Source: a virus
Lineage: Duplodnaviria > Heunggongvirae > Uroviricota > Caudoviricetes
DNA length: 64,000 bases
Strand: one strand, 5' to 3'
Virus record (IMG/VR): IMGVR_UViG_3300012943_000001
Coordinates: 103,743 to 167,742 of that record
Shown here in pieces: positions 43,042 to 62,913 of this stretch. Position numbers and translations under genes: made by a program. Within the stretch, counting starts at the first letter, position 1, and each line of letters begins with the position of its first letter. Under the pieces are notes generated by a model. It had not been told where the DNA came from, searched no databases, and was given only the letters and a program-made list of their open reading frames with translations.

Positions 43042-44154
43042 ATGAAAATCGTCCTCTCAGATATCGACCCAGAGTCTTTCATGGTTCATCCGCACGAGAT
43101 TGCGGGTGAGACCTGCTATCTGGTTCAGCCTATCCATATCGGTGCAAAGTGGACCAAATCCAACTTGCACCAACGGTCCTCCGTGTGGAACGCTCAGGGC
43201 GAACTCGTTTCCGCTTCCTTCAAGAAATTCTTCAATTGGGCAGAGCAGCCAGACCTTGCATACACTCCTTTCTCCCTGACGGCGAACGGTGGATGTGAGT
43301 TGATTGAGAAAATCGACGGTTCTACTCTTATCGTTTCGAGGTATAAGGGCCAGACTATCATCCGTACTCGTGGTACAACCGACGCCTCTAAACTCGACAA
43401 CGGTCATGAAATCGAGTGGTTGAAAGACAAGTATCCTCGTGCGTTCAAGTTCCCAGATAAAGATGGGAATGACTACGAGACCGCACCGTACTCATTGATT
43501 TATGAGTGGGTATCTCCAGAGAATAAAATCGTATTGAATTATGGTGAAGACCCAGACATTTATTTGACTGCGGTTATCAACCATGACACCTATACACTTT
43601 GGCCTCAAGACGAAGTAGATGTTCTCGCAACCCTTCTTCTAGTGAAACGTCCAGCTCGCTATAACTTCGCGTCCGTGGCAGAAATGCTTGCGGCTGTCGA
43701 AGACCTAAAGGGCAAGGAAGGTCTCTGCGTCTACTGTAACAAGGGTCAAGATATCCGTAAGGTTAAGTCCGCATGGTATCTCGCGTTGCACCGTATGAAG
43801 ACGGAGTTTGGTTCGTACGAGCGTGTAGTAGACTTCTACTTCACGATGAACAAGCCAACCTATCAGGAATACTACCAGTTCATTGTAGATAACTACGATT
43901 TCGAATTGGCAGAGCAGTGCCGTGGTCATATCTCAAAGGTATGCGACGGCATGAAAGAGGTTGCCGTTCTGATTGCGGCTATGACCGAAAAGGTTGAACC
44001 ACTCCGTACGAAGTCCCGCAAGGATGCAGCCGCAGTAATTCTTCAAGCTTATGGCTTGACAAATCGCTCAGGCATGGCATTCTCCATCCTCGACAACAAG
44101 CCACTCAAGGTAGACGACTACAAAAAACTCCTGTACCAAGTAACGAAGGACTAA
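43042..44154 (+). CDS. ATP-dependent RNA/DNA ligase-family nucleotidyltransferase (Rnl-like)
   Basis: Motif I EKIDGS, motif IV EGLCVY, motif V RKVKS. Confidence 0.6.
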   Translation: MKIVLSDIDPESFMVHPHEIAGETCYLVQPIHIGAKWTKSNLHQRSSVWNAQGELVSASFKKFFNWAEQPDLAYTPFSLTANGGCELIEKIDGSTLIVSRYKGQTIIRTRGTTDASKLDNGHEIEWLKDKYPRAFKFPDKDGNDYETAPYSLIYEWVSPENKIVLNYGEDPDIYLTAVINHDTYTLWPQDEVDVLATLLLVKRPARYNFASVAEMLAAVEDLKGKEGLCVYCNKGQDIRKVKSAWYLALHRMKTEFGSYERVVDFYFTMNKPTYQEYYQFIVDNYDFELAEQCRGHISKVCDGMKEVAVLIAAMTEKVEPLRTKSRKDAAAVILQAYGLTNRSGMAFSILDNKPLKVDDYKKLLYQVTKD

Positions 44155-44155
44155 A

Positions 44156-44479
44156 ATGATTCCCGACAAGCTCCTTAATCTCAGCTATACCAAGCACGCG
44201 ATTAGGGAAGCTTGTTGCGAACGTTTTGGTAGTATAGAGCATCGTCCCAAGAATTTTATAAAGGTGGGTTGCAAGGCGGTGACCGAAAGTGCAGAGAAGC
44301 CTAACGTTATCAAAGCTACCTATATCTATGACGACTGGCGAGATGTCATTTTAGTCATAGACACCATAACTAAAACCGTAATTACAAACTACCTCAAACC
44401 CGCCCAAAACAAAGGCGTATTCAAAGGTCGATTTCGAATTCAGCCAAAGCATGAGCTACAAACTTTTTCTCGACGATGA
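44156..44479 (+). CDS. hypothetical protein
   Basis: 107 aa. Confidence 0.45.
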   Translation: MIPDKLLNLSYTKHAIREACCERFGSIEHRPKNFIKVGCKAVTESAEKPNVIKATYIYDDWRDVILVIDTITKTVITNYLKPAQNKGVFKGRFRIQPKHELQTFSRR

Positions 44480-44813
44480 ACGCATTCCTCAAAAAGTTTT
44501 TTGGGTTCCGCTTCCACTAGGCCCTTGGGTAATTGTCCGTTCTTACAACGAGTTCGTAGAGCACATCACAAAGAACGGTCTACCTGAGTTCATCTCTTTT
44601 GACCACGATTTATCCTTCGAAGACCAGAACGTTGGGGGAAAATCCCCAGACGAATACAAGGAAAAGACCGGGATGCACTGTGCTCACTGGCTGGTTAACT
44701 TTTGCCTTGACAATAACCTCAAGTGTCCTAACTTCACGGTCCACAGTATGAATCCAGTTGGTGCCAGAAACATCCGCTGCCTCCTCCAAGACTTTATCAT
44801 CTCACAAGAATGA
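44451..44813 (+). CDS. hypothetical protein
   Basis: 120 aa. Confidence 0.45.
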   Translation: MSYKLFLDDERIPQKVFWVPLPLGPWVIVRSYNEFVEHITKNGLPEFISFDHDLSFEDQNVGGKSPDEYKEKTGMHCAHWLVNFCLDNNLKCPNFTVHSMNPVGARNIRCLLQDFIISQE

Positions 44814-45262
44814 CGCTTTCAAATCTAGCTTTCAAACTCGCCGTGTTCTACCACGAGGGACAGACGCGTGAAAACGGTGTACCGTATATCACTCACCCTA
44901 TCGCCGTGGCAGAGATTGCCGTCGAATCAGTTGGCAACCTCTATTCTGAGGAAGTCATCGACATCATCAAAGCAATCGCTGACCTCCACGACGTTTTAGA
45001 AGACTGCGAAAAGAAGGGTGCGAGTGTCCAGTCTCTCAAGGAAAGCTTTAAGGGCTTCGCCAGAGCTGACGACGTAATCGACGCCGTAGTTTGCCTCACG
45101 AAAGTTGCGGGCGAATCATATTTCGTATATCTACAACGTGTCAAAGCTAACGAGTTTGCCAGAATCGTCAAGCTCGCAGACCTCCAACATAACCTCGGCG
45201 ACCTGCCTCCGGGCAAACGCCGAGACAAGTATCTCCTCGCTCAGTATTTCCTCCTCAACTAA
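44810..45262 (+). CDS. small alarmone hydrolase (RelA/SpoT HD domain, Mesh1-like)
   Basis: FYHEGQTRENGVPYITHP and LHDVLEDC match (p)ppGpp hydrolase HD motifs; 150 aa. Confidence 0.7.
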   Translation: MTLSNLAFKLAVFYHEGQTRENGVPYITHPIAVAEIAVESVGNLYSEEVIDIIKAIADLHDVLEDCEKKGASVQSLKESFKGFARADDVIDAVVCLTKVAGESYFVYLQRVKANEFARIVKLADLQHNLGDLPPGKRRDKYLLAQYFLLN

Positions 45263-45263
45263 A

Positions 45264-45938
45264 ATGAAGATTCCAAAGTTCGATACAGTTAAGACGAAGA
45301 TTTTCTTCGGAAGCGACTTCCACTTGTCGCACAAGCAGCCATTCATTTGGCAGGCACGTGGCTTCAATTCGATTGAGGAGCACGCTAATTTCATCATTGA
45401 CGAGACGAACAAGGTTGTTGGTGAAGACGACATCCTGTTTTACTTGGGCGATTTCTCGCTCAACTCGACGCCTGACGAGACGCGTGCATACTTCCGTCGA
45501 TTCAAGACGAAGCACATCTATTACATTTGGGGCAACCACGAGTCCAACACTTGGGCTATCTATCAGGACGCAATCCGGGAGAAGTTCAAGGGTCTTCCAT
45601 TCGTGCCTCCAGAGGTTTATCATTTCACATGGGAGAACGTGACGTTCTTTGGTAAGAGCCTTATGGTTAATATCAATGGACAAATCGTAATCCTATCGCA
45701 CTTCGCCCATTACATTTGGGATACGATGCAGCACGGTGCGTGGAATATTTGCGGCCATAGTCATGGCAACTGTGCGGAGCTTGTACCAGAGGCGGCATTT
45801 GGTAAGGTTCTAGACGTTGGCGTGGATGTCGCCGTAAAGCTCAACGCAAGTCCTGTCGTATCGTTTGAAGAGGTGGAGGAAATCCTCTACAAGAAGGCGA
45901 TTCAAGTTCGAGACCATCACAATAAGCAGACAACATGA
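45264..45938 (+). CDS. calcineurin-like metallophosphoesterase (polynucleotide 3'-phosphatase candidate)
   Basis: GDFHL, GDF, GNHE motifs; start at the internal ATG immediately after the upstream stop. Confidence 0.7.
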   Translation: MKIPKFDTVKTKIFFGSDFHLSHKQPFIWQARGFNSIEEHANFIIDETNKVVGEDDILFYLGDFSLNSTPDETRAYFRRFKTKHIYYIWGNHESNTWAIYQDAIREKFKGLPFVPPEVYHFTWENVTFFGKSLMVNINGQIVILSHFAHYIWDTMQHGAWNICGHSHGNCAELVPEAAFGKVLDVGVDVAVKLNASPVVSFEEVEEILYKKAIQVRDHHNKQTT

Positions 45939-46414
45939 TTTCAGAGTTCCATATGTTAGTTGGTATCGTTGGCTCTGGCAAGAGCACGTTATGCAAGAAG
46001 TTACTTGTAGATAAGCAAGCGACTCTTGTCAGCTCTGACGATATACGCCTAGAGGTTTGTGGCAACATGACAGACCAATCCAAGAATGGCTTAATCTTTA
46101 CAAAGATTATTCCTGAGAGGATTAAGGCTGGACTGAAGGCGGGCAACGTTGTGTACGACGCAACGAACTATAACCGCAAGTCTCGCCGTGAGTGGTTGAC
46201 TCTAGCCAAGTCTCTAGGTGCGAGGACGGTAGTTCATCAAATGCTAACCCCATTCGATGAGTGCCGTCGTCGTAATGCCGCACGCCTAGAGCGTGTTGTG
46301 CCTGACTTCGTAATCGACAAGATGGTTGCGGGTTGGGAAGCTCCAGACATGAACATCGAGAAAATCGACGAAATCATCCTAGTATCTGAGAGTGGCGTTG
46401 CGAAAGTTGCTTGA
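45935..46414 (+). CDS. pnk: polynucleotide 5'-kinase domain protein (T4 Pnk kinase-like)
   Basis: P-loop GIVGSGKST; VVYDATNYNRKSRREW resembles the T4 Pnk DxTN...R segment. Confidence 0.7.
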   Translation: MISEFHMLVGIVGSGKSTLCKKLLVDKQATLVSSDDIRLEVCGNMTDQSKNGLIFTKIIPERIKAGLKAGNVVYDATNYNRKSRREWLTLAKSLGARTVVHQMLTPFDECRRRNAARLERVVPDFVIDKMVAGWEAPDMNIEKIDEIILVSESGVAKVA

Positions 46415-46442
46415 CTTTCCCGCCATTCTCGGTACTCTTAAC
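46411..46442 (+). promoter_or_regulatory. conserved CTTGACTTTCC-type promoter
   Basis: gcTTGACTttcccgccattctcggTACTCTtaa. Confidence 0.45.
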
Positions 46443-46465
46443 GTTTTACCTAATCAAATCTTACT

Positions 46466-46933
46466 ATGTCCAAAATCAATCTCGCCAAAGCCCTCAAAGT
46501 CAAAAATTCCCTTATCAGCGAAATCAATCGCTCCAAGGCTGTCTTTGCTCGTGAAAACTCCCGTAAGGAAGGCTCCACGTCCAAGGTTGACCGCGAACAG
46601 CTCTGGGACCAAATCTCCGTCAAAACCCAGCAGTTGGTCAAGCTGAAGGGGCAAATCGCCGCCGCGAACATTGCCATCTATCCAACGCTTGCCCTTATGG
46701 AGGAGGCTAAGTCTGCAATCACGTTCCTACAGCAGCTCAATACTACAGACGGAAAGGTCGTTGAGCATAGCCGCTATGGTACGGGTCCAAACCTTGAGAC
46801 GAACTTCTCCGCCTTCATCACGCAAGATGGGGTGGATAAGAGGGTCAACGAGTTTCAGAAGATTATCGAAGACGCACAAGATGCGGTGGACGCCTATAAC
46901 GCAACCACATTCATCGAAGTCTCATTCGTCTAA
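46466..46933 (+). CDS. hypothetical protein
   Basis: 155 aa after the promoter at 46411. Confidence 0.5.
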   Translation: MSKINLAKALKVKNSLISEINRSKAVFARENSRKEGSTSKVDREQLWDQISVKTQQLVKLKGQIAAANIAIYPTLALMEEAKSAITFLQQLNTTDGKVVEHSRYGTGPNLETNFSAFITQDGVDKRVNEFQKIIEDAQDAVDAYNATTFIEVSFV

Positions 46934-47151
46934 CACTTTGGGCCGCTGGTTCGGCGTCTAACAGGCACGGGAGTATTTTAATGACGAAAGTCATTGGAAA
47001 TCTATCTATAACGATAATGATAAGGAGTAAAGGCTTCGGCCCTAATAAGGTTCAACGCTCATGAACTCAAAAGTTATCAATTAAAGATTAAGAATCAAAA
47101 CTCTGTTTCCCTCACGTTTGTTATTCGCCGGATTAGCGGTTCATTTATTTT

Positions 47152-47304
47152 ATGATAAGATTCGCCATCGCGTTCTTATTGGGAGCGGCAGTCGCACTTT
47201 GGTTCCCCTTGTTTATCAAGGCGGTCCTCTGCCTCATTGGGTACGTAATCGTTGCGTCCTTAGCTACTCTCCTCTTCTTGGCTATCGTGGGTAGCAAGGC
47301 TTGA
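47152..47304 (+). CDS. small hydrophobic peptide (~50 aa, two TM)
   Basis: Manual ORF MIRFAIAFLLGAAVALWFPLF...; not in the ORF track (<60 aa). Confidence 0.35.
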   Translation: MIRFAIAFLLGAAVALWFPLFIKAVLCLIGYVIVASLATLLFLAIVGSKA

Positions 47305-47332
47305 CTTTACTGAAACGGCTACTAGAATGAAT
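47301..47332 (+). promoter_or_regulatory. conserved CTTGACTTTACTGAAACG-type promoter (-10 TAGAAT)
   Basis: gcTTGACTttactgaaacggctacTAGAATgaa. Confidence 0.55.
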
Positions 47333-47355
47333 TTCATGATTAACTCCCAACCCTA

Positions 47356-47649
47356 ATGGCTATTGTCAAAACAACCCGCTATTACCTGAATGTTTTTGGA
47401 AGCATTCAGAGAGACTTCAAGACTACAGCGTCCGAAGGCTCCAACAATAGAGACGACGTATTCGAATATACATTCCCAAACGACGAACTATTCTTTCAGC
47501 ATTTTTATCGACTCAATATCAAAACCGCTCAGGGCAAACTTCTAAAGGGTAAAACCTTGGTGGGGGTCTATACAAGAAGGGGTCTGGAAAAGAAAGACCG
47601 CCCTCGCCCCCGAATGAACAGCCAAAAATTCAGAGAACGCGACGAATGA
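47356..47649 (+). CDS. hypothetical protein
   Basis: 97 aa after the promoter at 47301. Confidence 0.45.
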   Translation: MAIVKTTRYYLNVFGSIQRDFKTTASEGSNNRDDVFEYTFPNDELFFQHFYRLNIKTAQGKLLKGKTLVGVYTRRGLEKKDRPRPRMNSQKFRERDE

Positions 47650-47858
47650 AAAAAGCATTTACATTAGTGGAAATCATGGTCGTCGTTTGTATCATAGGGG
47701 TTGTAGCCGCTATGGCAATTCCCGCCTTTCAAAAGCTCAAAGAGAGTAAAGCGAATGCAGATAAACGCAGGTCTCCACACAGAGTCGAACAAGTACAATC
47801 CTATACTCCTCCCGAGGAAATCATAATCAACGGTTATAAATATCGCCTAGTAAGGTAA
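47646..47858 (+). CDS. type IV pilin-like (prepilin N-terminal methylation motif) small protein
   Basis: KKAFTLVEIMVVVCIIGVVAAMAIP is a canonical class III signal / pilin N-terminus. Confidence 0.5.
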   Translation: MKKAFTLVEIMVVVCIIGVVAAMAIPAFQKLKESKANADKRRSPHRVEQVQSYTPPEEIIINGYKYRLVR

Positions 47859-47860
47859 CA

Positions 47861-48889
47861 ATGGCAGTGGCAAGAAAATTAGCGTCCATCCAAAAAATTC
47901 TAGACATACTTCCCCATGCAAACGCGGACACGTTAGAGATTGCCCGCGTCTTGGGTTGGAAGGTTTGCGTCAAGAAGGGCGAGTTCAAAGTAGGAGACTA
48001 CTGTGTCTACATGGAGATTGACTCTATGTTGCCGCAGAAACCTGAGTTTGAATTCCTTCGTTCCAAAGGATTCAGGATTAAAACCGTCAGGCTCCGTGGA
48101 GAAGTGTCTCAGGGCATCGCATTCCCACTATCTATCCTTGATGGATATAAGGTTCACGACCAGCATCAGGAGATACCTTACTTAGAAGATTTGGATGTCA
48201 CTGAGCTTATTGGCGTCGTCAAGTACGAGCCCGCAATCCACTTCGCTATTGGCGGAGAGATTAAGGGTCATTTCCCAGAGTTTTTGAAGAAGACGGACGA
48301 GACCCGCATCCAAGCCTTTCCTCGTCTCCTAGACCGCTACAAGGGCGAACGCTTCTACGTTACAGAGAAGTTGGACGGCTCTTCCATGACCGTATATTTC
48401 AAAGACGGTATGTTTGGTATTTGCAGTCGTAACTACGAACTTAGAGAGACTGAAGGTAACGCTCTATGGGCAACCGCAAAGAGGCTCCACCTACCCGAGA
48501 AACTTACGGCTTTTGGTCGCAATATTGCGATTCAGGGTGAGCTTATCGGTCCGGGCATCCAAGGTAACAAATACAAGGTCAAAGAACATCAGTTCCGTCC
48601 GTTCAACGCTATCAACATCAATGAGGCGAAACGTATTGGAGCTGTCGAACTGTTCTCTTTGTGCTCTGCACTAGACCTAGAGCCCGTTCCTGTAATCGAC
48701 TTCTGGTTCGTTCTTAACCATACTGTAGACGATATAGTGTCGTACGCAGAGGGTAAGAGTGCTTTGAATTCAAACACGGAAAGAGAGGGTGTCGTCATTC
48801 GTTACATCGAAGAGAAGTACGACGAAGACATTGGAGACTTGAGCTTCAAAGTCATCAGCCCTAACTTCCTGCTTAAATCAGACGAGTAA
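47861..48889 (+). CDS. RNA ligase, DRB0094/Rnl5 family
   Basis: N-terminal OB LASIQKI...ADTLEIARVLGWKVCVKKGEFKVGDYCVYMEIDS; motif I EKLDGSS. Confidence 0.75.
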   Translation: MAVARKLASIQKILDILPHANADTLEIARVLGWKVCVKKGEFKVGDYCVYMEIDSMLPQKPEFEFLRSKGFRIKTVRLRGEVSQGIAFPLSILDGYKVHDQHQEIPYLEDLDVTELIGVVKYEPAIHFAIGGEIKGHFPEFLKKTDETRIQAFPRLLDRYKGERFYVTEKLDGSSMTVYFKDGMFGICSRNYELRETEGNALWATAKRLHLPEKLTAFGRNIAIQGELIGPGIQGNKYKVKEHQFRPFNAININEAKRIGAVELFSLCSALDLEPVPVIDFWFVLNHTVDDIVSYAEGKSALNSNTEREGVVIRYIEEKYDEDIGDLSFKVISPNFLLKSDE

Positions 48890-52858: not shown

Positions 52859-52992
52859 ATTTCGTATCAGTGAGTTCAATAGCAAAAGCCGCAAGGTGAA
52901 GTAACTATTATTCATAAGCTCTGTCTGAGCAAGTCGGGTTAAAATCCGAAAGCTGATACAAGCCCGCATATAGGTTGCGGGTGTTAATTTAT

Positions 52993-55839: not shown

Positions 55840-56391
55840 ATGTCGGTTCAATCAGATAGGGTCAAACTTTGGAGAAAACAAACCAAGCTACGTATCGTTC
55901 AGGCGATGGGTGGAAAGTGTCAGTGTTGCGGATACAACAAATGTGTAGACGCCTTAGAGATTCATCACCTAGACCCAGAGGAGAAGTCCTTTACGGTCTC
56001 TGCATTAAGAGCGAATCACGGAAGCTGGGACTCCATAGTGAAAGAACTTAGAAAGTGTGTAATGCTTTGCGGCATCTGTCACGCAGAGTACCACGCGGGC
56101 ATGAGAGAAATTCCCGCAGACGCCCAAAGATTCAACGAAGAATACGTTGACTACAAAGCGTTGGGCAAAGAAAAGAGTTTCTGCCCAATTTGTAAAGAAG
56201 AGAAAGAGGAGTTCAACAAAACATGCTCGTACAAGTGTGCGGCTGTATACAAGGCTCCAATAGATTGGTCTAAGTACGACTTGAAGAAAATGTACGTGGA
56301 CGAAAAGAAAACTCAAACAGAGATTGGCACAATAGTTGGCCTGTCTGATGTTGCGGTTAGTAAGCGACTTAAAAAGTTGGGTCTCAAATAA
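55840..56391 (+). CDS. HNH homing-type endonuclease
   Basis: CQCCGYNKCVDALEIHHLDP...CGICHAEYH; inserted between tRNA genes. Confidence 0.7.
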   Translation: MSVQSDRVKLWRKQTKLRIVQAMGGKCQCCGYNKCVDALEIHHLDPEEKSFTVSALRANHGSWDSIVKELRKCVMLCGICHAEYHAGMREIPADAQRFNEEYVDYKALGKEKSFCPICKEEKEEFNKTCSYKCAAVYKAPIDWSKYDLKKMYVDEKKTQTEIGTIVGLSDVAVSKRLKKLGLK

Positions 56392-56398
56392 TTTTTAT

Positions 56399-56477
56399 AC
56401 GAACGTAGTGCTAGTCTGGTTAAGCGACTCGATTTGGAATCGAGATTTCGCGGGTTCAAATCCCGCCGTTCGTACCA
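56399..56477 (+). tRNA. tRNA-Pro(TGG)
   Basis: Stem CTCGA/TCGAG, loop TTTGGAA; TTCAAAT; ...CGTTCGTACCA. Confidence 0.55.
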
Positions 56478-56496
56478 TTTGTTAGTGTTAGTATAT

Positions 56497-56574
56497 CCGT
56501 CATTAGCGTAATCTGGCTATCGCGTTTCGTTTGGGGCGAAGAGACTGCTGGTTCGAATCCAGCATGGCGGACCA
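56497..56574 (+). tRNA. tRNA-Pro(TGG), second copy
   Basis: Loop TTTGGGG; TTCGAAT; ...ATGGCGGACCA; long D-loop. Confidence 0.5.
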
Positions 56575-56579
56575 TTTAT

Positions 56580-56652
56580 TCACTCGTAGTTTAGTATAAA
56601 ATTCCCTCGCTTTAGAGGGTGACACGCGGCTTATAACCCGTCGAGTGAGCCA
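56580..56652 (+). tRNA. tRNA-like gene with a 6-nt anticodon loop (GCTTTA)
   Basis: Perfect acceptor TCACTCG/CGAGTGA + GCCA; stem CCCTC/GAGGG closes a 6-nt loop; no GG in the D-loop. Confidence 0.35.
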
Positions 56653-56717
56653 TTCTTGCAAGACCGTGAAGCTTGAGGTTGCAACCTTGAGTGAGTGACG
56701 GAAAGCGAAACGTACGT

Positions 56718-56790
56718 GGTGAAGTAACCCAGTGGAAGAGGTAGGCCCGTTAAAGGGCCTCAAGCGTTGGTTCGAATCCAACCTTTGCCG
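56718..56790 (+). tRNA. tRNA-like gene with a 6-nt anticodon loop (GTTAAA), no encoded CCA
   Basis: Acceptor GGTGAAG/CTTTGCC (2 G.U); stem GGCCC/GGGCC; T-arm GTTGG-TTCGAAT-CCAAC. Confidence 0.35.
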
Positions 56791-56875
56791 TATGCGTACT
56801 GAGTAGCATAACTTTATCTAGTGGTTCGCCACTTAGAACCTTCAGGTCTCCATGAAGCAAAACCGGAGACATTAT

Positions 56876-56952
56876 GGGCGTGTGGCGTAATTGGTAAACG
56901 CGTTTGACTCAAAATCAAAATTCTGTCGGTTCGAGTCCGACCTCGCCTACCA
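56876..56952 (+). tRNA. tRNA with anticodon CAA (Leu-like decoding) but a class I body
   Basis: Stem TTTGA/TCAAA, loop CTCAAAA; TTCGAGT; ...CTCGCCTACCA; one acceptor mismatch. Confidence 0.45.
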
Positions 56953-56956
56953 CTTT

Positions 56957-57087
56957 GGGGAGTTAGTTAAAAACTAATCATCCACTTCGACATTTCTCTG
57001 GCAACAGTAGCTATGAAGAGGATTACATCGGAAAAACAAATGCCTGTAAAGCGTTAATAGGAGGTTCGAATCCTCCACTCCCCACCA
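56957..57087 (+). tRNA. elongated tRNA-like gene (~131 nt) with an internal insertion
   Basis: GGGGAGT...(approx 70-nt insert)...GGAGGTTCGAATCCTCC ACTCCCC A CCA; perfect 7-bp acceptor. Confidence 0.35.
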
Positions 57088-57150
57088 ATTTACTTTTCAA
57101 CGCTCGAAGTCCTACGGGACAAGGGCCGAAAAGAAACAGAAAGGATAACA

Positions 57151-57237
57151 ATGGAATTCGTAACTATTGCTATCGCTGCTTATGCGGTTATCGGTTTGCT
57201 ATATCAAATGGCAAAAGCGTACCCGGCAGTTAAATAA
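57151..57237 (+). CDS. small hydrophobic peptide (28 aa)
   Basis: RBS AGGATAACA-ATG; MEFVTIAIAAYAVIGLLYQMAKAYPAVK; followed by an intrinsic terminator. Confidence 0.3.
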   Translation: MEFVTIAIAAYAVIGLLYQMAKAYPAVK

Positions 57238-57246
57238 GAAAACAAA

Positions 57247-57278
57247 TGGGGGCGGCTCTGTAATGGGGTCGCCCCTTT
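57247..57278 (+). terminator. rho-independent terminator after the small peptide ORF
   Basis: GGGGGCGGCtctgtaatggggtCGCCCC + TTTCTATT. Confidence 0.5.
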
Positions 57279-57282
57279 CTAT

Positions 57283-57358
57283 TGATGAATGGTGTAACTG
57301 GCAACACGCTTGATTCTGACTCAAGAGACTCTAGGTTCAACTCCTAGTTCATCAGCCA
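57283..57358 (+). tRNA. tRNA-Gln(CTG) (U1:A72, G73)
   Basis: TGATGAA...stem CTTGA/TCAAG, loop TTCTGAC...TTCAACT...TTCATCAGCCA. Confidence 0.7.
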
Positions 57359-57364
57359 ATTTAT

Positions 57365-57442
57365 GGACGCGTAGCTCAGTTATGTAAGAGCATCGGCTTG
57401 AAACACCGAGGGTCGGCGACTCAGCATCGCCCACGTCCACCA
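57365..57442 (+). tRNA. tRNA-Phe(GAA)-like, non-canonical T-loop
   Basis: GGACGCGTAGCTCAG...loop TTGAAAC; T-loop CTCAGCA; ACCA. Confidence 0.4.
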
Positions 57443-57448
57443 GTTTAT

Positions 57449-57563
57449 GGGCGTCTAGTGTTGAATCCGTAACTCGTACGGAAGTTGAAATACAAGGAAG
57501 CACATCGCGTAGTTGAAGAACGATGACCGCGAAGGTACGGGTTCAAATCCCGAACGTCCACCA
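57449..57563 (+). tRNA. elongated tRNA-like gene (~115 nt)
   Basis: GGGCGTC...CGTAC[~55 nt]GTACG...GGGTTCAAATCCCG AACGTCC A CCA. Confidence 0.3.
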
Positions 57564-57709
57564 CTTTTAGCGACCGCACCAGCTTACGTGAAGATTCGTA
57601 CATTTCGAAGCGTGGACGCACGTGTAGGACCGCAGGCCCCTATATCTTTCGGTATAGAGATTTCCCTGAGACGGGCCGCTAAACAATTTCCAGTAGTCAC
57701 AGTCAGACA

Positions 57710-57781
57710 TTCATCGTAGCTTAATGGTTAAGCAATTGTCTCAAACACAGTATATTGTAGGTTCAAATCCTACCGATACCG
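57710..57781 (+). tRNA. tRNA-like (loop CTCAAAC), weak acceptor, no CCA
   Basis: D-arm GCTT-AATGGTTA-AAGC; T-arm GTAGG-TTCAAAT-CCTAC; acceptor only 4 bp. Confidence 0.3.
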
Positions 57782-57823
57782 CAAGGTATTACCTGTCTGG
57801 CAAATTTTCTCTGGAAAATCTTT

Positions 57824-57898
57824 GGTTGTATAGCTCAATGGTTGAGCAATCTCTTGATAAGGGATAGGTTGTCGGTTCGAACCCGGCTGCAACCACCA
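57824..57898 (+). tRNA. tRNA-Ile(GAT), second copy
   Basis: GGTTGTATAGCTCAATGG...loop TTGATAA...TTCGAAC...TGCAACCACCA. Confidence 0.7.
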
Positions 57899-57943
57899 AT
57901 TCTCTGTTGGCTTGACGGAGCTAAAAATATTGAGCCTTCTTAT

Positions 57944-58021
57944 GGTGTCGTAGGTGTAATTGGCTTTGCATACTAGACTGTGAATCTGGGGGAACGAATT
58001 CGAATTTCGTACGACACACCA
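57944..58021 (+). tRNA. tRNA-His(GTG) with encoded G-1
   Basis: G-GTGTCGT...loop CTGTGAA...TTCGAAT...ACGACACACCA. Confidence 0.7.
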
Positions 58022-58026
58022 TTTAT

Positions 58027-58103
58027 GGCCGTTTAGCCCAATTGGCAGAGGCGTCTGCCTTAGAAGCAGAATGTTGAGGGTTCGAGTCCCTTGGCGGCTA
58101 CCA
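58027..58103 (+). tRNA. tRNA with anticodon TAG (Leu-like decoding), short variable arm
   Basis: Stem TCTGC/GCAGA, loop CTTAGAA; TTCGAGT; ...GGCGGCTACCA. Confidence 0.5.
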
Positions 58104-58267
58104 CTTTAAGGTACTAAAATGTTTTTACTACCTACAGATACTAAAACTATGGAGGATGCTATGACAATGCTAAACGCGAAAGAGAGCAAGCACATCACGG
58201 GCTTGACAATCGGAAGTTAAAGAGAGTTAGGGTTAGAGAACACCATCATAGAGATTACGATTTCTAT

Positions 58268-58624
58268 TTGAGTTATGGAGATATGCTTAAACGCTTTCCC
58301 GTAACTAAGCAAGGCGACCCAGAAGGCTACGACCCAATTCAATGCTACGTCCTAATCGACTCGCATGGAGAACGGAGCGGGCCTCACCCTTGCAATGACC
58401 CTGACACTTTAGACAAAGTTTTAAGAGGCAAAGAGAACGTAAACCTGCAAATCAAAATGTGGGTTGAGTCAGTAATGGACAGCACTCTTTGGCCTGAAGA
58501 AGTGAAAGAGTATACGAAAGATTATCCTGAGTGGGTATTCAAATCGTTCCTCAATCAATTGCATAGAGAGATAGTTAAGAAGATAGGATTCGTTCCTACC
58601 TTTATGAAAGTTTCGCCGCAGTGA
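58268..58624 (+). CDS. hypothetical protein
   Basis: 118-aa ORF (TTG start) between tRNA genes. Confidence 0.45.
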   Translation: MSYGDMLKRFPVTKQGDPEGYDPIQCYVLIDSHGERSGPHPCNDPDTLDKVLRGKENVNLQIKMWVESVMDSTLWPEEVKEYTKDYPEWVFKSFLNQLHREIVKKIGFVPTFMKVSPQ

Positions 58625-58635
58625 TGCGGCTTTGT

Positions 58636-58712
58636 GGCCGGATGACGGAATTGGCATACGTATTGGTCTAAGAAGCCAAGTTTTGTGGGTTCGACTCCCA
58701 CTTCGGCTACCA
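58636..58712 (+). tRNA. tRNA, anticodon read as AAG (uncertain)
   Basis: Stem TTGGT/GCCAA, loop CTAAGAA; TTCGACT; ...TTCGGCTACCA. Confidence 0.4.
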
Positions 58713-58717
58713 CTTTT

Positions 58718-58809
58718 GGGAGTGTAATGTAATGTAGCATCGCACGTTTTATAAACGTGGTGCAGTAGATAACTGCCGAGTATGGGTTCAAGTCCCTTCG
58801 CTCCTACCA
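58718..58809 (+). tRNA. type II tRNA with anticodon read as TAT (unusual)
   Basis: Stem CACGT/ACGTG, loop TTTATAA; variable hairpin GCAGT-AGATA-ACTGC; TTCAAGT; ACCA. Confidence 0.4.
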
Positions 58810-58810
58810 T

Positions 58811-58953
58811 GAGAGTGAGGTGTAATGGTTGCACGTTGACGATAGCAGGCGAAAATATGAGTGAAGCTGGCTAATAACCAACCGCTCCTCAAAGCATAGC
58901 TGTAAGTCTTGAAACATGTCAAAGGAATGGGTCCGAATCCCACGCTCTCTCCA
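58811..58953 (+). tRNA. elongated tRNA-like gene (~143 nt)
   Basis: GAGAGTG...(approx 80-nt insert)...TGGGTCCGAATCCCA CGCTCTC T CCA. Confidence 0.3.
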
Positions 58954-59047
58954 ATTTTGTGAGGGTAGGATAGGTTGTTGCAAATGATAATGTCTTTAGG
59001 TAACTTGCCGCGTAAAGAGTCCTATCTCGAATCACAATCAATTTTAT

Positions 59048-59122
59048 GGCGATATCTTCTAATGGCTAGGAAGGCTGGTTCTCAACCAGATAATCGGGGT
59101 TCGATTCCCCGTATCGCTACCA
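59048..59122 (+). tRNA. tRNA-Glu(CTC)-like
   Basis: GGCGATA...loop TTCTCAA (4-bp stem)...TTCGATT...TATCGCTACCA. Confidence 0.45.
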
Positions 59123-59337
59123 ATTTATGGCGAAGTGCGAGAAAGCTTTAAGTCGCGGTTAAAGTGCAGTGCTTAATAAGCCACTTACGTCACCAATTTA
59201 TAAATACACTCTAGTATCAAATTTCCAGACAGCATAACGAGCGGTTCGACTCCGCCCGAGCATCCCTAAGAAGATGCCGAGGGAACGCTGGAGAACATTT
59301 CTAACTTGAAAAATAGTTAGAGACGGATATAATTCGG

Positions 59338-59721
59338 ATGAAACAAAAGATTTTGAAACTCCTATCCGAAGGAAAGAGTCAGAAGGAAGTGGTAAGACTG
59401 TTGGGTTGCTCATCGGCGACGGTCTGGTATCATTCCTCAGATAAAGCGAAAGCAATAGTTCTACGGAACAACGCAAAGAACAAAACCGACTCTAAGAGAA
59501 GATTGAAAGAAGAGTTCGGAGGAAAGTGTATGTGTTGTGGATACAACAAAAGCTTCAGAGCGTTACACTTTCATCATAAAGACCCGTCTAAAAAGGACGA
59601 CGATATCAATAGCCTTGTAAGTAGAGGTCAGATTACACAAGCACGAGAAGAAGCAAAGAAATGCGTTCTTGTCTGTGCAAACTGCCACGCGGAAATCCAC
59701 GAAGGTATCCGCACCATATAA
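59338..59721 (+). CDS. HNH homing-type endonuclease (paralog of 55840..56391)
   Basis: CMCCGYNKSFRALHFHHKDP...CANCHAEIH. Confidence 0.7.
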   Translation: MKQKILKLLSEGKSQKEVVRLLGCSSATVWYHSSDKAKAIVLRNNAKNKTDSKRRLKEEFGGKCMCCGYNKSFRALHFHHKDPSKKDDDINSLVSRGQITQAREEAKKCVLVCANCHAEIHEGIRTI

Positions 59722-59864
59722 TTTCAGTAGTTACGTAGAGACTTTCATCGTCTATTAAACGAGTGTTTGTGAGGTTCGAATCCCACTCGCCCCACCATTT
59801 ATGGGGCGATACGCAAATGGTAAAGCGGCTAAAATCGTCTCTGCAATTTTTCTCTGAAAACTAA

Positions 59865-61170: not shown

Positions 61171-61539
61171 CTATCTCACTCTCTTTGAGTCTGAGTTCAA
61201 ATTGCGAAAGTTAGGAGTAAGAGAATGACAGTTTGGACACAGTAGTTCTAAATTCTCTTCCCAACTATTTTCTGCGTTACCGTCGATATGATTAACTTCT
61301 AAAGGTACAAGTTGAGTAACGGGATGTTTGGCTGACCAGCCGCACTTGCAGCATTTAGAATTGTATTTCTGAAATAGATACTTACGAACGAATGGTTTTA
61401 TTTTCTTGGTTATTCCTGTCCAACCGATAAGCTCACGAGCTTGCCAAGTCCTGACGCTATTTTCGTAAGTCGTTTTTCCCTGACATTTTAGGGAGCAATA
61501 TTTCTTTTTAGCAGGAGCGTTACAACAGATACAAACCAT
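61171..61539 (-). CDS. HNH endonuclease
   Basis: CPNCH, NHIDGN, multiple Cys pairs; the only clear minus-strand gene, flanking the tRNA array. Confidence 0.65.
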   Translation of the reverse strand: MVCICCNAPAKKKYCSLKCQGKTTYENSVRTWQARELIGWTGITKKIKPFVRKYLFQKYNSKCCKCGWSAKHPVTQLVPLEVNHIDGNAENSWEENLELLCPNCHSLTPNFRNLNSDSKRVR

Positions 61540-62621: not shown

Positions 62622-62712
62622 CCAATTTGTCAGTAGCTAGGGCCAGACATTCATCGTTATTATCAAAACAACCAAAAACTGTCTACCCATTTTTCTCTGA
62701 CGAAAATTTTTC

Positions 62713-62913
62713 ATGGAAGTAAAAGAACTAGAAGGCAAGGTCGATAAGCTCAGAGCTGACATCATGCATCTCATAAGAGAATTCAAGCGTGAAACGAACT
62801 ACTCTGTAAGCGAAATCGAAGATATGACCGTTCAAACAATAAGCGGCCCGCCTGAAGTTGTTCACCTCCATATAACGGTCTCTTATGATGGACAATCAAC
62901 CTTCAGAAAGTAA
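62713..62913 (+). CDS. hypothetical small protein
   Basis: 66 aa. Confidence 0.35.
   Translation: MEVKELEGKVDKLRADIMHLIREFKRETNYSVSEIEDMTVQTISGPPEVVHLHITVSYDGQSTFRK

Follow-up and report, generated by a model that had tools for sequence, protein, structure and literature searches.

When a gene in a tRNA array has the ends of a tRNA and an interior too long for one, is the extra sequence removed or does it stay in the RNA? Three such genes were present in a giant, uncultured metagenomic phage of ~205 kb, represented by a 205-kb phage-like contig. The window analysed here is a 64-kb stretch of this contig. Its tRNA region (52.6-63.9 kb) contains 42 tRNAs called by ARAGORN and 44 called by Rfam, nearly all with an encoded CCA, and the 47-gene array, with all genes on the same strand, encloses the three elements. 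The coordinates given by the original prediction were exact.

56957 to 57087, + strand: E1, tRNA-like gene, 131 nt (four homologues, covariation)
57449 to 57563, + strand: E2, tRNA-like gene, 115 nt (five homologues, covariation)
58811 to 58953, + strand: E3, tRNA-like gene, 143 nt (six homologues, covariation)

E1, E2 and E3 were mostly flanked by the short U-rich spacers (UUUAU-like) typical of the array. Several degenerate tRNA-like stretches were also observed elsewhere in the array. Two RNA ligases (one of them Rnl1-like), a P-loop kinase and a phosphoesterase are encoded 8-14 kb upstream.

Detection by standard tools and chance expectation

ARAGORN, run with and without intron mode, called none of the three elements, and at a lowered threshold called just a 70-nt 3' piece of E1. 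With the Rfam tRNA model (RF00005) the 3' part of E1 reached 22.4 bits, short of the cut-off (29 bits), and neither E2 nor E3 matched it at E<=10. Detection as tRNAs by covariance model or intron mode, which had been put forward as a check, thus failed both in ARAGORN and at the Rfam tRNA threshold. Rfam also gave no match to known ribozymes, riboswitches or Y RNA at E<=10, and no group I intron in the window, nor at E<=10 over 56400-59400. As the genes are invisible to standard tRNA and Rfam annotation, such genes are probably under-counted in metagenomes.

The motif of a T arm followed by 7 nt, any base and CCA occurred 41 times in the window as compared to 0.61 times per shuffle. An acceptor partner matching at least 6 of 7 positions 100-160 nt upstream was common by chance, and the window alone is therefore no proof of long-range acceptor pairing; that proof came from covariation in homologues. 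Single-sequence folding energies gave weak z-scores for the three elements (-2.9, -2.2 and -0.5) and were not relied on.

Conservation in related phages

Full-length homologues of all three elements were present in related phage contigs whose in-array ORF is just 60-76% identical. Pair formation in these small families (4-6 sequences each) was compared to slid alignments as controls. Of the 34 pairs proposed for E1, 95.6% formed in four homologues (slid controls 40-55%), with 13 compensatory pairs. The E2 structure was 94.8% paired in five homologues (controls 35-57%; 10 compensatory pairs) and E3 92.4% paired in six (controls 31-50%; 16 compensatory pairs), both figures being inflated as the alignments were hand-fitted to the proposed structures. 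Across the families 92-96% of proposed pairs formed, with the same inflation for E2 and E3, and each family had 10-16 compensatory pairs. The acceptor complementarity held up in homologues, with the stem covarying in the E1 and E3 families. The genes and their inserts are conserved and their structures covary, and with full-length homologues this demonstrates that E1, E2 and E3 are real structured RNA genes, neither chance matches nor pseudogenes.

Searches of public collections added few relatives. Near and distant DNA searches of 50,697 GenBank phages found zero homologues; Taipeivirus phages have a 25-nt perfect match to E3, but it falls within an opposite-strand CDS and was rejected as chance. 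In IMG/VR the 3' end of E1, the E1 linker and the in-array ORF had no matches, an E2 pattern matched one locus, and an E3 pattern matched 11 loci, only 2 of them real. Two scans of JGI metagenomes gave no matches in a collection that lacks even the JGI-derived relative L006. A scan of GTDB genomes returned one match, on a Nostoc plasmid without tRNA features, also dismissed as chance. As possible antisense targets, sites complementary to the conserved E1 and E3 motifs were sought in the window and were no more frequent than chance predicts. These RNAs, or permuted tRNAs in phages, were not described in any literature we found.

Structures of the three elements

The original prediction proposed that each element pairs its first 7 nt with the 7 nt before a discriminator and CCA, carries a canonical T arm, and holds its extra sequence between the D and T arms. 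The E1 acceptor (56957-63/57077-83, GGGGAGU/ACUCCCC) is Watson-Crick at 7/7 positions and is followed by A73 and CCA (57085-87), the T arm (57060-76) reads GGAGG-UUCGAAU-CCUCC, and the anticodon arm (57039-55) reads AAUGC-CUGUAAA-GCGUU with anticodon GUA. It is the only element with a 5-bp anticodon stem and a 7-nt loop with U33, and the only one with a 5-bp T stem and UUCRANY loop. The insert, between the D and anticodon arms, has two parts.

56980 to 57023, + strand: E1 extra arm (X/Y arm), 44 nt (homologues, covariation)
57024 to 57038, + strand: E1 linker, UACAUCGGAAAAACA, invariant in 4/4 homologues

The arm consists of helix 1 (AUCCACUUC/GAAGAGGAU), an internal loop (GACAUUU/CUAU), helix 2 (CUCUG/CAG(U)AG) and a GCAA tetraloop; the terminal loops of the four homologues are GCAA, GCAA, GUAA and UACG. 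The insert sequence (arm and linker UNCAUCG) is more conserved than the surrounding tRNA stems. Judging from its invariant bases, the linker may contribute G18, G19 and A21, as well as the 3' side of a D stem (G10-U11-U12/A-A-C25). A covariance model of E1 scored the four homologues at 129-151 bits and ordinary tRNAs, aligned end to end, at 35-52 bits. The anticodon differs by homologue (GUA, UAA, AGA and CAU) and the 7-nt loop with U33 and A37 is kept in 4/4. E1 can be described as a complete tRNA, with 7/5 stems and an ordinary anticodon arm, to which a 44-nt arm and an invariant linker are added.

E2 departed from the prediction at several points. The acceptor (GGGCGU/ACGUCC) forms 6 bp, one of them G3·U70, with C7 and A66 mismatched, and is followed by A73 and CCA, and the T stem is 4 bp (CGGG/CCCG). 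The extra sequence lies partly in the D loop, enlarged to 38 nt and enclosed by a D stem at 57458-61/57500-03 (GUGU/GCAC). A stem in the anticodon position (57505-09/57528-32, UCGCG/CGCGA) closes an 18-nt loop made of UA, a GUU-GAAG-AAC mini-hairpin and GAUGAC; the loop is 17-18 nt in the family and holds no anticodon. Covariation was seen at each of the 5 pairs in the anticodon-position stem and each of the 3 in the mini-hairpin. The CGTAC/GTACG helix that had been proposed to close the insert was not conserved; the covarying helices are the D stem and the stem in the anticodon position. Homologue length ranges from 93 to 122 nt.

All five divergent E2 homologues have the same bases at the six paired acceptor positions, G3·U70 among them, and at A73, with only position 7 varying; the tRNA-Ala acceptors of the same phages vary. 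Among ARAGORN tRNA calls at 8 loci, G3·U70 was found in tRNA-Ala only (7/7, all with A73). The E2 acceptor is, by its bases, alanine-type; charging by AlaRS is predicted, and codon reading would be impossible. ARAGORN found neither a tag reading frame nor pseudoknots in E2, and tmRNA size is about 250-400 nt. The related phage L003 carries, besides E2, a true tmRNA of 385 nt (ARAGORN) with the ends GGGCAUA...UAUGUCCACCA.

E3 lies 1 nt downstream of a tRNA-Ile gene, and its insert has two landmarks.

58718 to 58809, + strand: tRNA-Ile(UAU) with long variable arm, 92 nt (ARAGORN)
58866 to 58882, + strand: anticodon-arm-like hairpin at the tip of the E3 insert, GCUGG-CUAAUAA-CCAAC (homologue comparison)
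58904 to 58917, + strand: one-sided bulge of E3, AAGUCUUGAAACAU, 13/14 positions invariant

tRNA-Ile(UAU) is the usual gene directly upstream of E3, with the same pairing in L013, L008 and L015. We considered E3 as a paralogue co-evolving with it and rejected this, as the acceptor stems do not track each other. The E3 acceptor (GAGAGUG/CGCUCUC) pairs at 7/7 positions with one G·U and is followed by U73, a discriminator that varies in the family, and CCA. The D arm (58820-34) is canonical, and a stem in the anticodon position (58836-40/58918-22, UUGAC/GUCAA) encloses a 77-nt insert (58841-58917) that takes the place of the anticodon loop. The T stem is 4 bp (UGGG/CCCA) with a loop, UCCGAAU, that is non-canonical at position 55, and the loops in homologues deviate as well (UCCGAAU, CUCGAAU, UUUGAUU). 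In all homologues the 4-bp T stems of E2 and E3 adjoin the acceptor strand directly. A fully canonical T arm was thus confined to E1, and the three inserts share no common site (D/anticodon junction in E1, D loop and anticodon loop in E2, place of the anticodon loop in E3).

Within the E3 insert UCUUGAAACAUGU is invariant, and the tip loop is CUCAUAA in four homologues. The bulge includes UUGAAAC, the anticodon loop of the tRNA-Phe(GAA) genes of the same phages. A disrupted tRNA-Phe was also rejected, as the body spliced in silico resembles no particular tRNA family. With two anticodon-loop look-alikes on a long arm, E3 is best read as a tRNA mimic. The suggestion of giant variable arms was not supported: all three families have a variable region of 4-5 nt, no class II extra arm was found between their anticodon and T arms, and the extra sequence is located elsewhere.

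The E1 arm in other RNA genes

The arm module of E1 was also found as the terminal stem of three more RNA genes in the window.

57688 to 57815, + strand: type A element (orthologues at L006 9467 and L013 1815)
59724 to 59858, + strand: type B element, circularly permuted tRNA-like gene (conserved in L006 and L013)
62628 to 62705, + strand: type C element, Y...UUCAUCGU...X stem, just before ORF 62713-62913 (shared stem)

The 11 instances of the X/Y arm were 97.9% paired, a figure inflated by hand-fitting, and 8/9 helix-1 pairs covary. In type A the Y and X strands pair as a terminal stem around a tRNA mimic. The mimic has D and T arms, an anticodon arm (CUCAAAC) and, in the acceptor position, a hairpin capped by GCAA; there is no free CCA. 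In type B the Y strand and a small anticodon-like hairpin come first, then the T arm and the 3' strand of the acceptor; ACCA and UUUAU follow, and after them the 5' strand of the acceptor, the D arm and the X strand. Both the acceptor strands and the terminal helix covary. Type C has no tRNA within the stem. The arm sits in E1 at the same tRNA position as the open ends, or break point, of the permuted gene. As the same arm is the terminal stem of three nearby RNA genes, the module most likely binds, or gets cut by, one specific factor.

Interpretation

With moderate confidence we favour the reading that E1, E2 and E3 are genuine tRNA-shaped RNA genes of a phage of a bacterium, cut from the array with their inserts kept and the tRNA frame used as a scaffold. 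The best reading is that they are tRNA-scaffolded or tRNA-mimic RNAs that retain their inserts, as for RNAC and RNAD of T4, and the tRNA-like structural RNAs of the original prediction were its best-supported suggestion, given inserts that are conserved and covarying and the lack of a usable anticodon loop and the 4-bp T stems in E2 and E3. The parts that tRNA-processing enzymes would read (acceptor stem, T arm, encoded CCA and mostly U-rich spacers) are kept in each element. RNase P and 3' trimming would release each from the array transcript with the predicted ends, and the product would persist as a stable RNA of 115-143 nt. RNase P or the CCA enzyme might recognise E2 and E3 less well on account of their 4-bp T stems. 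The extra sequence would be a conserved folded domain of the mature RNA, and if it stays there the tRNA frame would act as a processing and stability scaffold. For E1 charging may still occur and even decoding is conceivable; E2 could be charged by AlaRS without reading codons.

An unlikely alternative is that the elements are intron-containing pre-tRNAs, with an endonuclease excising the inserts and phage RNA ligase and end-healing enzymes joining the halves. E1 would yield tRNA-Tyr(GUA) and E3 a Phe-type loop UUGAAAC, and splicing would be signalled by the X/Y arm, acting in cis in E1 and, in the permuted gene, between leader and trailer. We scanned all single deletions of 25-95 nt for a callable tRNA. 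For E1, 150 different deletions gave a full-length tRNA-Tyr(GUA) call, but no single excision restored E2 or E3. That E1 and the open ends of the permuted element share an identical arm fits splicing, and the two phage RNA ligases, kinase and phosphoesterase could heal and seal cut RNA. Lak megaphages are reported to have tRNAs, including tRNA-Tyr(GTA), with "enigmatic", highly conserved introns (PMC6784885). Deletion of positions 34-98 of E3 leaves a stem closing UUGAAAC as in the phages' own tRNA-Phe, but in this product the stem would exceed the normal length by 2 bp, the T stem would have 4 bp and the discriminator would be variable. No group I intron was detected, and inserts of about 45-77 nt are well below the roughly 200 nt or more of group I introns. 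Inspection of the covarying helices showed no bulge-helix-bulge at the base of any insert, and Pfam matches in the 64-kb window of the 205-kb genome included no splicing endonuclease. The arm and linker UNCAUCG outdo the tRNA stems in sequence conservation, unlike shape-defined introns, and removal of the arm alone leaves ~18 nt between the D and anticodon arms of E1. Intron-less alleles were looked for among relatives and none were found; L006 lacks E3 altogether. Splicing is thus possible for E1 alone of the three.

A more elaborate proposal, to which we give a low probability, is that the X/Y arm marks substrates of a previously unknown, protein-dependent phage system for cutting and joining RNA. 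It would remove the arm from E1-type pre-tRNAs and circularise or re-join 59724-59858 with the phage ligases, kinase and phosphoesterase, as a counterpart of archaeal and algal tRNA splicing and maturation of permuted tRNAs, with E2 and E3 as further substrates or decoys in the contest with the host over tRNAs. In archaea and algae such an arm-at-break-point pattern marks a shared splicing signal.

It is doubtful to a similar degree that the elements are working translation tRNAs, charged, delivered by EF-Tu and decoding, with extra domains that only tune identity or shield them from host anticodon nucleases. This could fit E1, with its 7/5 stems, canonical T loop, anticodon loop of constant shape in four homologues, and invariant candidates for A14, G18, G19 and A21. 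Ordinary tRNAs align end to end with its model, and its anticodons change from homologue to homologue on a loop of constant shape, a pattern also seen in tRNA gene families. Tyr, Leu and Ser account for three of these four anticodons, and bacterial tRNAs for these amino acids normally carry an extra arm. But we know of no ribosome-compatible tRNA with a 44-nt arm at this position, the D region has no standard D arm unless a weak 3-bp reading is accepted, and the discriminators are not those expected for the identities (the L013 homologue has a Leu anticodon and G73). Translation does not easily fit E2, which lacks an anticodon, or E3 with its 77-nt insert, and both have 4-bp T stems.

For E2 there is a slim chance of an alanine-charged RNA acting outside normal decoding, as an alanine donor, an AlaRS sponge, or a small relative or antagonist of tmRNA. 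The invariant G1-C72, G2-C71, G3·U70, C4-G69 and A73 in five divergent homologues and the restriction of G3·U70 to tRNA-Ala among the other calls in these arrays are consistent with this, as is the presence of E2 beside a true tmRNA in L003. Against it, E2 lacks the tag frame and pseudoknots (ARAGORN) and at 93-122 nt is far below tmRNA size, no aminoacyl-transferase gene was seen in the window, and the charging is read from sequence alone. Decaying pseudogenes broken by insertions, or chance matches, are highly improbable: degenerate tRNA-like stretches do occur in the array and chance acceptor partners at 100-160 nt are frequent, but this reading is already at odds with full-length conservation across phages this divergent, compensatory changes in helices and inserts that outdo the flanking stems in conservation.

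Phage tRNA clusters are now viewed as weapons against host defences that destroy tRNAs, and the retained-insert RNAs favoured here may play a role in this contest over host tRNAs. To our knowledge no role has been found in fifty years for the non-tRNA RNAs of phage tRNA clusters (RNAC and RNAD of T4). The three families, the arm module and the permuted gene show that in giant phages such non-tRNA RNAs are of diverse kinds, conserved and built from modules, and they supply defined sequences with predicted folds that are open to direct tests with RNase P, AlaRS, protein partners and ribosomes. If E1 is charged and decodes, the range of ribosome-compatible tRNA shapes would be wider; if the arm is a splice signal, it would give bacterial viruses their first protein-dependent system for tRNA splicing or permuted tRNAs.

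Comparison with known systems

Circularly permuted tRNA genes occur in the red alga Cyanidioschyzon and some archaea, and permuted ssrA genes give a two-piece tmRNA. Like these, 59724-59858 has the 3' half before the 5' half; its joint is ACCA-UUUAU and its terminal stem is the same as the E1 arm. Unlike permuted tRNA genes, it has no bulge-helix-bulge by inspection and its CCA is encoded; it could mature to a two-piece RNA without ligation.

YrlA is a bacterial Y RNA-like tRNA mimic tethered to Ro60. It is mentioned in PMC7824862. The likeness is a tRNA-shaped domain with a conserved stem as a protein handle, in the phage elements a putative one, and type A also has a capped acceptor and no free CCA. 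In contrast, E1-E3 have free CCA ends, Rfam gave no YrlA or Y RNA match, and no Ro/TROVE gene was seen in the window.

In the engineered "tRNA scaffold" of Ponchon and Dardel, recombinant RNAs are reportedly stable and correctly processed in E. coli. E2 and E3 likewise carry foreign structured RNA in the anticodon-loop place of a tRNA-like frame, but the scaffold is an artificial construct whereas E2 and E3 are natural and conserved.

Lak megaphages, also huge and uncultured, have oversized tRNA genes with highly conserved inserts described as "enigmatic" introns, one in a tRNA-Tyr(GTA) (Devoto et al. 2019, PMC6784885). Those inserts were placed by the eukaryotic mode of tRNAscan and re-checked on alignments of alleles with and without the insert (PMC6784885). 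Such allele pairs are known there and none were found here, and the E1-E3 inserts occupy the D/anticodon junction, the D loop or the site of the anticodon loop.

The closest counterparts are in T4, whose tRNA cluster includes rnaC (species 1, 139 nt) and rnaD (species 2, 119 nt), two genes with no known role (PMC3014915; PMC9697503). There is no sequence relationship: the E1 model scored rnaC at 21.6 bits, a generic tRNA-like match. The acceptor of RNAC is poorer, with two U·U, and no CCA is encoded, and for RNAD a single MFE prediction showed no clear tRNA-like fold. rnaC has a T arm (CCGGG-UUCGAAU-CCCGG), an acceptor-like stem, an extended arm in the anticodon position and a long D-region hairpin. 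Both systems are non-tRNA genes of ~120-140 nt on the tRNA strand of a phage tRNA cluster with a tRNA-like 3' domain, and among known RNAs it is these T4 species 1 and 2 RNAs that E1, E2 and E3 most resemble.

The tRNA array and its three oversized genes

The window came from a 205,482-bp metagenomic contig (ENA ERZ27256383 k141_2352669), and a near-identical 205-kb contig was present in SRR7976138. Protein-level kinship to known phages was distant only, and no DNA-level match to the window was found among 50,697 GenBank phage records. All long ORFs of the window lay on the + strand and included a DnaE-type polymerase, ClpB, NAD synthetase, PTH2, PARP and R2K ATP-grasp proteins. A set of RNA end-healing and sealing genes, HD proteins included, occupied 43042-48889, 4-10 kb upstream of a tRNA array spanning 52.6-63.9 kb. 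ARAGORN called 42 tRNAs in the array and Rfam 44, with a few more added at lower thresholds. Encoded CCA was found in nearly all array tRNAs, and short U-rich spacers (e.g. UUUAU) separated most of them. The survey for partner proteins covered 64 kb of genome plus flanks.

Repair genes, endonuclease ORFs and oversized tRNA-shaped genes of the window
43042-44154, +, Rnl1-like ligase
45105-45938, +, metallophosphoesterase
45935-46414, +, P-loop kinase
47861-48889, +, second RNA ligase, with a PHA02142 OB domain
55840-56391, 59338-59721 and 61171-61539 (-), three HNH-type endonuclease ORFs within the tRNA array
56957-57087, E1: acceptor of 7/7 Watson-Crick pairs, A73, CCA, canonical T arm
57449-57563, E2: six acceptor pairs including G3·U70, a C7·A66 mismatch, A73, CCA, 4-bp T stem
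58811-58953, E3: 7-bp acceptor with one G·U, U73, CCA, 4-bp T stem, T loop UCCGAAU

In relatives, HNH, NUMOD3 and PDDEXK_5 genes were seen at different positions of the array.

E1, E2 and E3 lay exactly where the original prediction had placed them, and their complementary acceptor ends and encoded CCA were borne out. A canonical T arm had been claimed for each; this held for E1 and failed for E2 and E3. None of the three was called by ARAGORN, intron mode included, or by the Rfam tRNA model. The tRNA-type 3' signature (T arm, 7 nt, discriminator, CCA) occurred at 41 sites in the window as compared to 0.61 per shuffle, which is far from chance. A complementary 7-mer 100-160 nt upstream of such sites was found by chance at nearly half of them, and single-sequence folding was unimpressive (z = -2.9, -2.2 and -0.5 for E1, E2 and E3). 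Because chance acceptor partners were frequent and folding energies weak, the case for the elements rests on their relatives.

The elements are conserved in related phages

Homologues of the in-array ORF 58268-58624 were present in other metagenomic contigs at 45-76% identity, and every neighbourhood fetched from them carried a large tRNA array. Full-length homologues of the elements were found using nhmmer and pattern scans.

Members of the three families (L numbers are related phage contigs or loci)
E1 family: window; L013; two copies in L006
E2 family: window; L003; L009; L012; IMG/VR contig L025
E3 family: window; L013; L008/L010; L003; IMG/VR contigs L015 and L016

No further real homologue came from JGI metagenomes, GTDB genomes or GenBank phages when these were scanned. 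The families are small. The members of each are related, so shuffle counts are not probabilities. Pairing was recounted with helix partners slid along the alignment as a control; the E2, E3 and extra-arm alignments were hand-fitted to the structures with N-padding for pair counting, which favours the structures.

The acceptor, anticodon and T stems of E1 and the helices of its insert held in 4 homologues. Standard pairs filled 95.6% of 136 cells as compared to 40-55% with partners slid 1-3 columns, compensatory changes were present in 13 of 34 pairs, and the observed values were reached by 0/500 shuffles, a count among related members and not a probability. The anticodon arm was normal, with a 5-bp stem and a 7-nt loop keeping U33 and A37, and the anticodons were GUA in the window, UAA in L013, and AGA and CAU in L006. 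Between the D region and this arm sat a 44-nt extra arm (56980-57023) and an invariant linker, UACAUCGGAAAAACA. In the extra arm, an asymmetric internal loop separated a 9-bp helix from a 5-bp helix (CUCUG/CAG-N-AG, one base bulged), and the tip was a tetraloop of the GNRA or UNCG type. One reading of the D region is a small local hairpin (UAGUU-AAA-AACUA). The other is a putative G10-U11-U12/A-A-C25 D stem with the arm inside a giant D loop; A14, G18, G19 and A21 were all present, and covariation cannot test this stem because its bases are invariant. An E1 covariance model scored its four members at 129-151 bits and recovered no further insert-bearing member from the sequences searched. Ordinary tRNAs aligned to it end to end at 35-52 bits, which makes E1 a tRNA with an added module that can be deleted. 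Directly 3' of E1, 57153-57276 held a 28-codon hydrophobic ORF (MEFVTIAIAAYAVIGLLYQMAKAYPAVK) followed by the strongest terminator-like hairpin of the array (13 pairs).

The five E2 homologues measured 93-122 nt, and G1-C72, G2-C71, G3·U70, C4-G69, G5-C68, U6-A67 and A73 were invariant in all of them. The D stem covaried (GUGU/GCAC, GUAU/AUAC, GUGU/ACAC), and the D loop that it enclosed, 16-44 nt long, ended in GG-N-A ahead of the 3' strand in four of the five. All 5 pairs of the anticodon-position stem covaried; its 17-18-nt loop consisted of 2-3 nt, a 3-bp mini-hairpin with 3/3 pairs covarying, and a GAUGA-like tail. In the hand-fitted alignment 94.8% of cells were paired as compared to 35-57% in slid controls. 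Alanine identity is conferred by G3·U70 with A73, and AlaRS ignores the anticodon. Among ARAGORN-called tRNAs of eight loci, G3·U70 occurred only in tRNA-Ala genes (7/7, all with A73); the acceptor sequences of these genes were variable and that of E2 was constant. By the identity rule, the E2 acceptor would probably be charged with alanine on an RNA that, we infer, would be unable to read a codon.

E2 as a tmRNA was ruled out, being far too short, having no tag frame by ARAGORN and occurring in L003 beside a true tmRNA. That phage-encoded 385-nt tmRNA (L003 15552-15936, tag DAVMSLADTDLVSTNEVLAVA) shares its contig with E3 as well as E2. The E2 D-loop insert (57461-57471) contained GAAUCC, a copy of the T-arm 3' strand, and can pair with the T-arm 5' strand and loop (57536-57546), an alternative fold that dominates the MFE. 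GAAUCC or AAUCCC also occurred in the E2 homologues of L003 and L025.

E3 had a canonical, covarying D arm, a covarying 5-bp anticodon-position stem (UUGAC/GUCAA, UUAAC/GUUAA, CAUAC/GUAUG) and a 4-bp T stem that held in every member. Pairs filled 92.4% of 170 cells of the hand-fitted alignment as compared to 31-50% in slid controls, and 16 pairs were compensatory. About 77 nt replaced the anticodon loop: one G, a long irregular hairpin and a 14-nt one-sided bulge, AAGUCUUGAAACAU, within which UCUUGAAACAU, continuing into the GU of the stem, was invariant. The tip of the hairpin was a 5-bp stem closing a 7-nt loop, which read CUCAUAA except in the window (CUAAUAA) and L003 (UUAAUAA). The UUGAAAC of E3 was the anticodon loop of the same phages' own tRNA-Phe(GAA) genes. 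In a tRNA-Phe(GAA)-like gene at 57365-57442, the loop UUGAAAC was closed by a C·A mismatch and the T loop (CUCAGCA) was not canonical; the gene scored 42 bits with Rfam, and ARAGORN needed a lowered threshold to call it.

In four of six contigs a 91-92-nt tRNA-Ile(UAU) with a long variable arm sat 1-2 nt upstream of E3; L006 had the long-arm tRNA-Ile and lacked E3.

Long-arm tRNA-Ile(UAU) genes, 91-97 nt
window 58718-58809
L013 3698-3788
L008 1034-1124
L006 10446-10542

To our knowledge a long variable arm is not known in bacterial tRNA-Ile. The tRNA preceding E3 in L016, with anticodon CAU, had a long variable arm as well.

Possible removal of the inserts as introns

Introns had been among the explanations offered for the extra length. 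Rfam found no group I intron, no bulge-helix-bulge was seen by inspection at the insert bases of E1-E3, and relatives yielded no allele lacking an insert. Every 25-95-nt stretch was deleted from each element and ARAGORN was asked for a full-length tRNA. In E1, 150 deletions (5' edge at 7-26, 3' edge at 60-88) gave tRNA-Tyr(GUA). No deletion did so in E2 or E3. Removing positions 34-98 of E3 gave the loop UUGAAAC on a 7-bp stem with a bulged G, 2 bp longer than that of a tRNA, and no likeness of the spliced body to a particular tRNA family was found. From these outcomes, splicing is possible for E1, weak for E3 and excluded for E2 as a route to a normal tRNA.

The E1 arm is shared with a permuted gene

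Arm strands of the E1 type formed the ends of three other genes of the window.

Other genes with the E1-type arm
57688-57815, type A: 128-nt tRNA mimic in an E1-arm-type stem; also L006 from 9467 and L013 from 1815
59724-59858, type B: tRNA-like gene in circularly permuted order; kept end to end in L006 10892-11023 and L013 4324-4456
62628-62705, type C: minimal CAGUAG...UUCAUCGU...UUUUUCUCUG stem-loop with no tRNA inside, between two ORFs

In type B, a T arm and an acceptor 3' strand with a terminal ACCA preceded UUUAU, and the partner acceptor 5' strand and then a D arm came after it. Its acceptor strands covaried (UCGCCCC/GGGGCGA, CCUCUCC/GGAGAGG, CGUCCCC/GGGGAUG), as did the helix between its two ends in three phages, and its small anticodon-like loop was CUAUUAA in the window and L006 and AUUCAAA (UCA) in L013. 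The ends were E1-arm sequences: CAG-N-AG, 12-13 nt and UNCAUCG at the 5' end and UUUCUCUG at the 3' end. After RNase P and 3' processing this gene would yield a two-piece tRNA-like RNA, predicted to be held by the acceptor stem and the arm.

D, anticodon and T arms were all present in the type A mimic. A GCAA-capped hairpin, which covaried, took the acceptor position, and there was no free CCA. The anticodon loop of the mimic was CUCAAAC, and CUUCAAC in L013, where ARAGORN called a tRNA-SeC; Rfam called only the core (57713-57777) as a tRNA. Type C ended 13 nt ahead of the ATG of ORF 62713-62913, which had no obvious Shine-Dalgarno sequence.

Across 11 instances in the window, L006 and L013, 97.9% of 142 hand-fitted cells of the arm strands paired as compared to 30-49% when slid. 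Outer-helix pairs covaried in 8 of 9 cases, and the inner helix, U-run and UCAUCG were invariant. The window had five copies of TTTCTCTG, all of them on the + strand and four within arm-bearing elements; the - strand had none. Because its arm sequences are shared with these genes, E1 is the closed version, in one piece, of an architecture found elsewhere in open-ended and permuted form.

Further tRNA-like stretches in the array

Other unusual stretches were observed in the array.

56717-56791, tRNA-like, 6-nt anticodon loop GUUAAA, no encoded CCA; ARAGORN gave a 2-base anticodon; similar gene at L006 6401-6473
58957-59043, conserved non-tRNA element between E3 and tRNA-Glu(CUC), complementary ends (UUGUGA...UCACAA); also at L006 10577-10650 and L013 3964-4048, with a shared 20-mer AATGTCTTTAGGTAACTTGC
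52864-52982, tRNA-like stretch of ~110 nt, 7/7 acceptor-like pairing GUAUCAG/CUGAUAC, T-arm-like UCGGG-UUAAAAU-CCGA, no CCA, terminator-like hairpin after it; part conserved in L003 1710-1793
56581-56657, 73 nt, a degenerate tRNA-like gene without CCA, acceptor UCACUCG/CGAGUGA, loop of 6 nt at the anticodon position; uncalled by either tool yet conserved in L013 1135-1216
59128-59195, 68 nt, UUUAU spacer before it, ACCA end, acceptor-like pairing GGCGAAG/CUUACGUC, no T arm; no homologue in the fetched loci

Probable tRNA-like RNAs with retained inserts

All three elements kept the parts needed by tRNA-processing enzymes, their inserts were conserved in sequence and structure, and E2 and E3 followed the short-spacer punctuation of the array. 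Together with the failed excisions in E2 and E3 and the precedents of T4 and Lak phages, this favours the prediction of tRNA-like structural RNAs: judged from sequence, E1-E3 are most likely RNAs that mimic tRNAs or use a tRNA as scaffold, with the inserts kept in place. E1 may still accept an amino acid, and E3 is most likely a mimic displaying anticodon-loop look-alikes. The nearby RNA-repair genes and the size of the array suggest tRNA conflict with the host as the setting, and a decoy, a sponge or a protein handle would be plausible roles.

The closest described objects are RNAC (139 nt) and RNAD (119 nt) of T4, located in the T4 tRNA cluster beside tRNA-Arg. In RNAC, a canonical T arm and an acceptor-like stem are accompanied by a 10-bp anticodon-position arm and a long D-region hairpin. 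No Rfam family covers RNAC or RNAD, and their roles are listed as unknown in reviews (PMC3014915; PMC9697503). Lak megaphages are a second precedent, with oversized tRNAs carrying conserved 'enigmatic' introns (PMC6784885).
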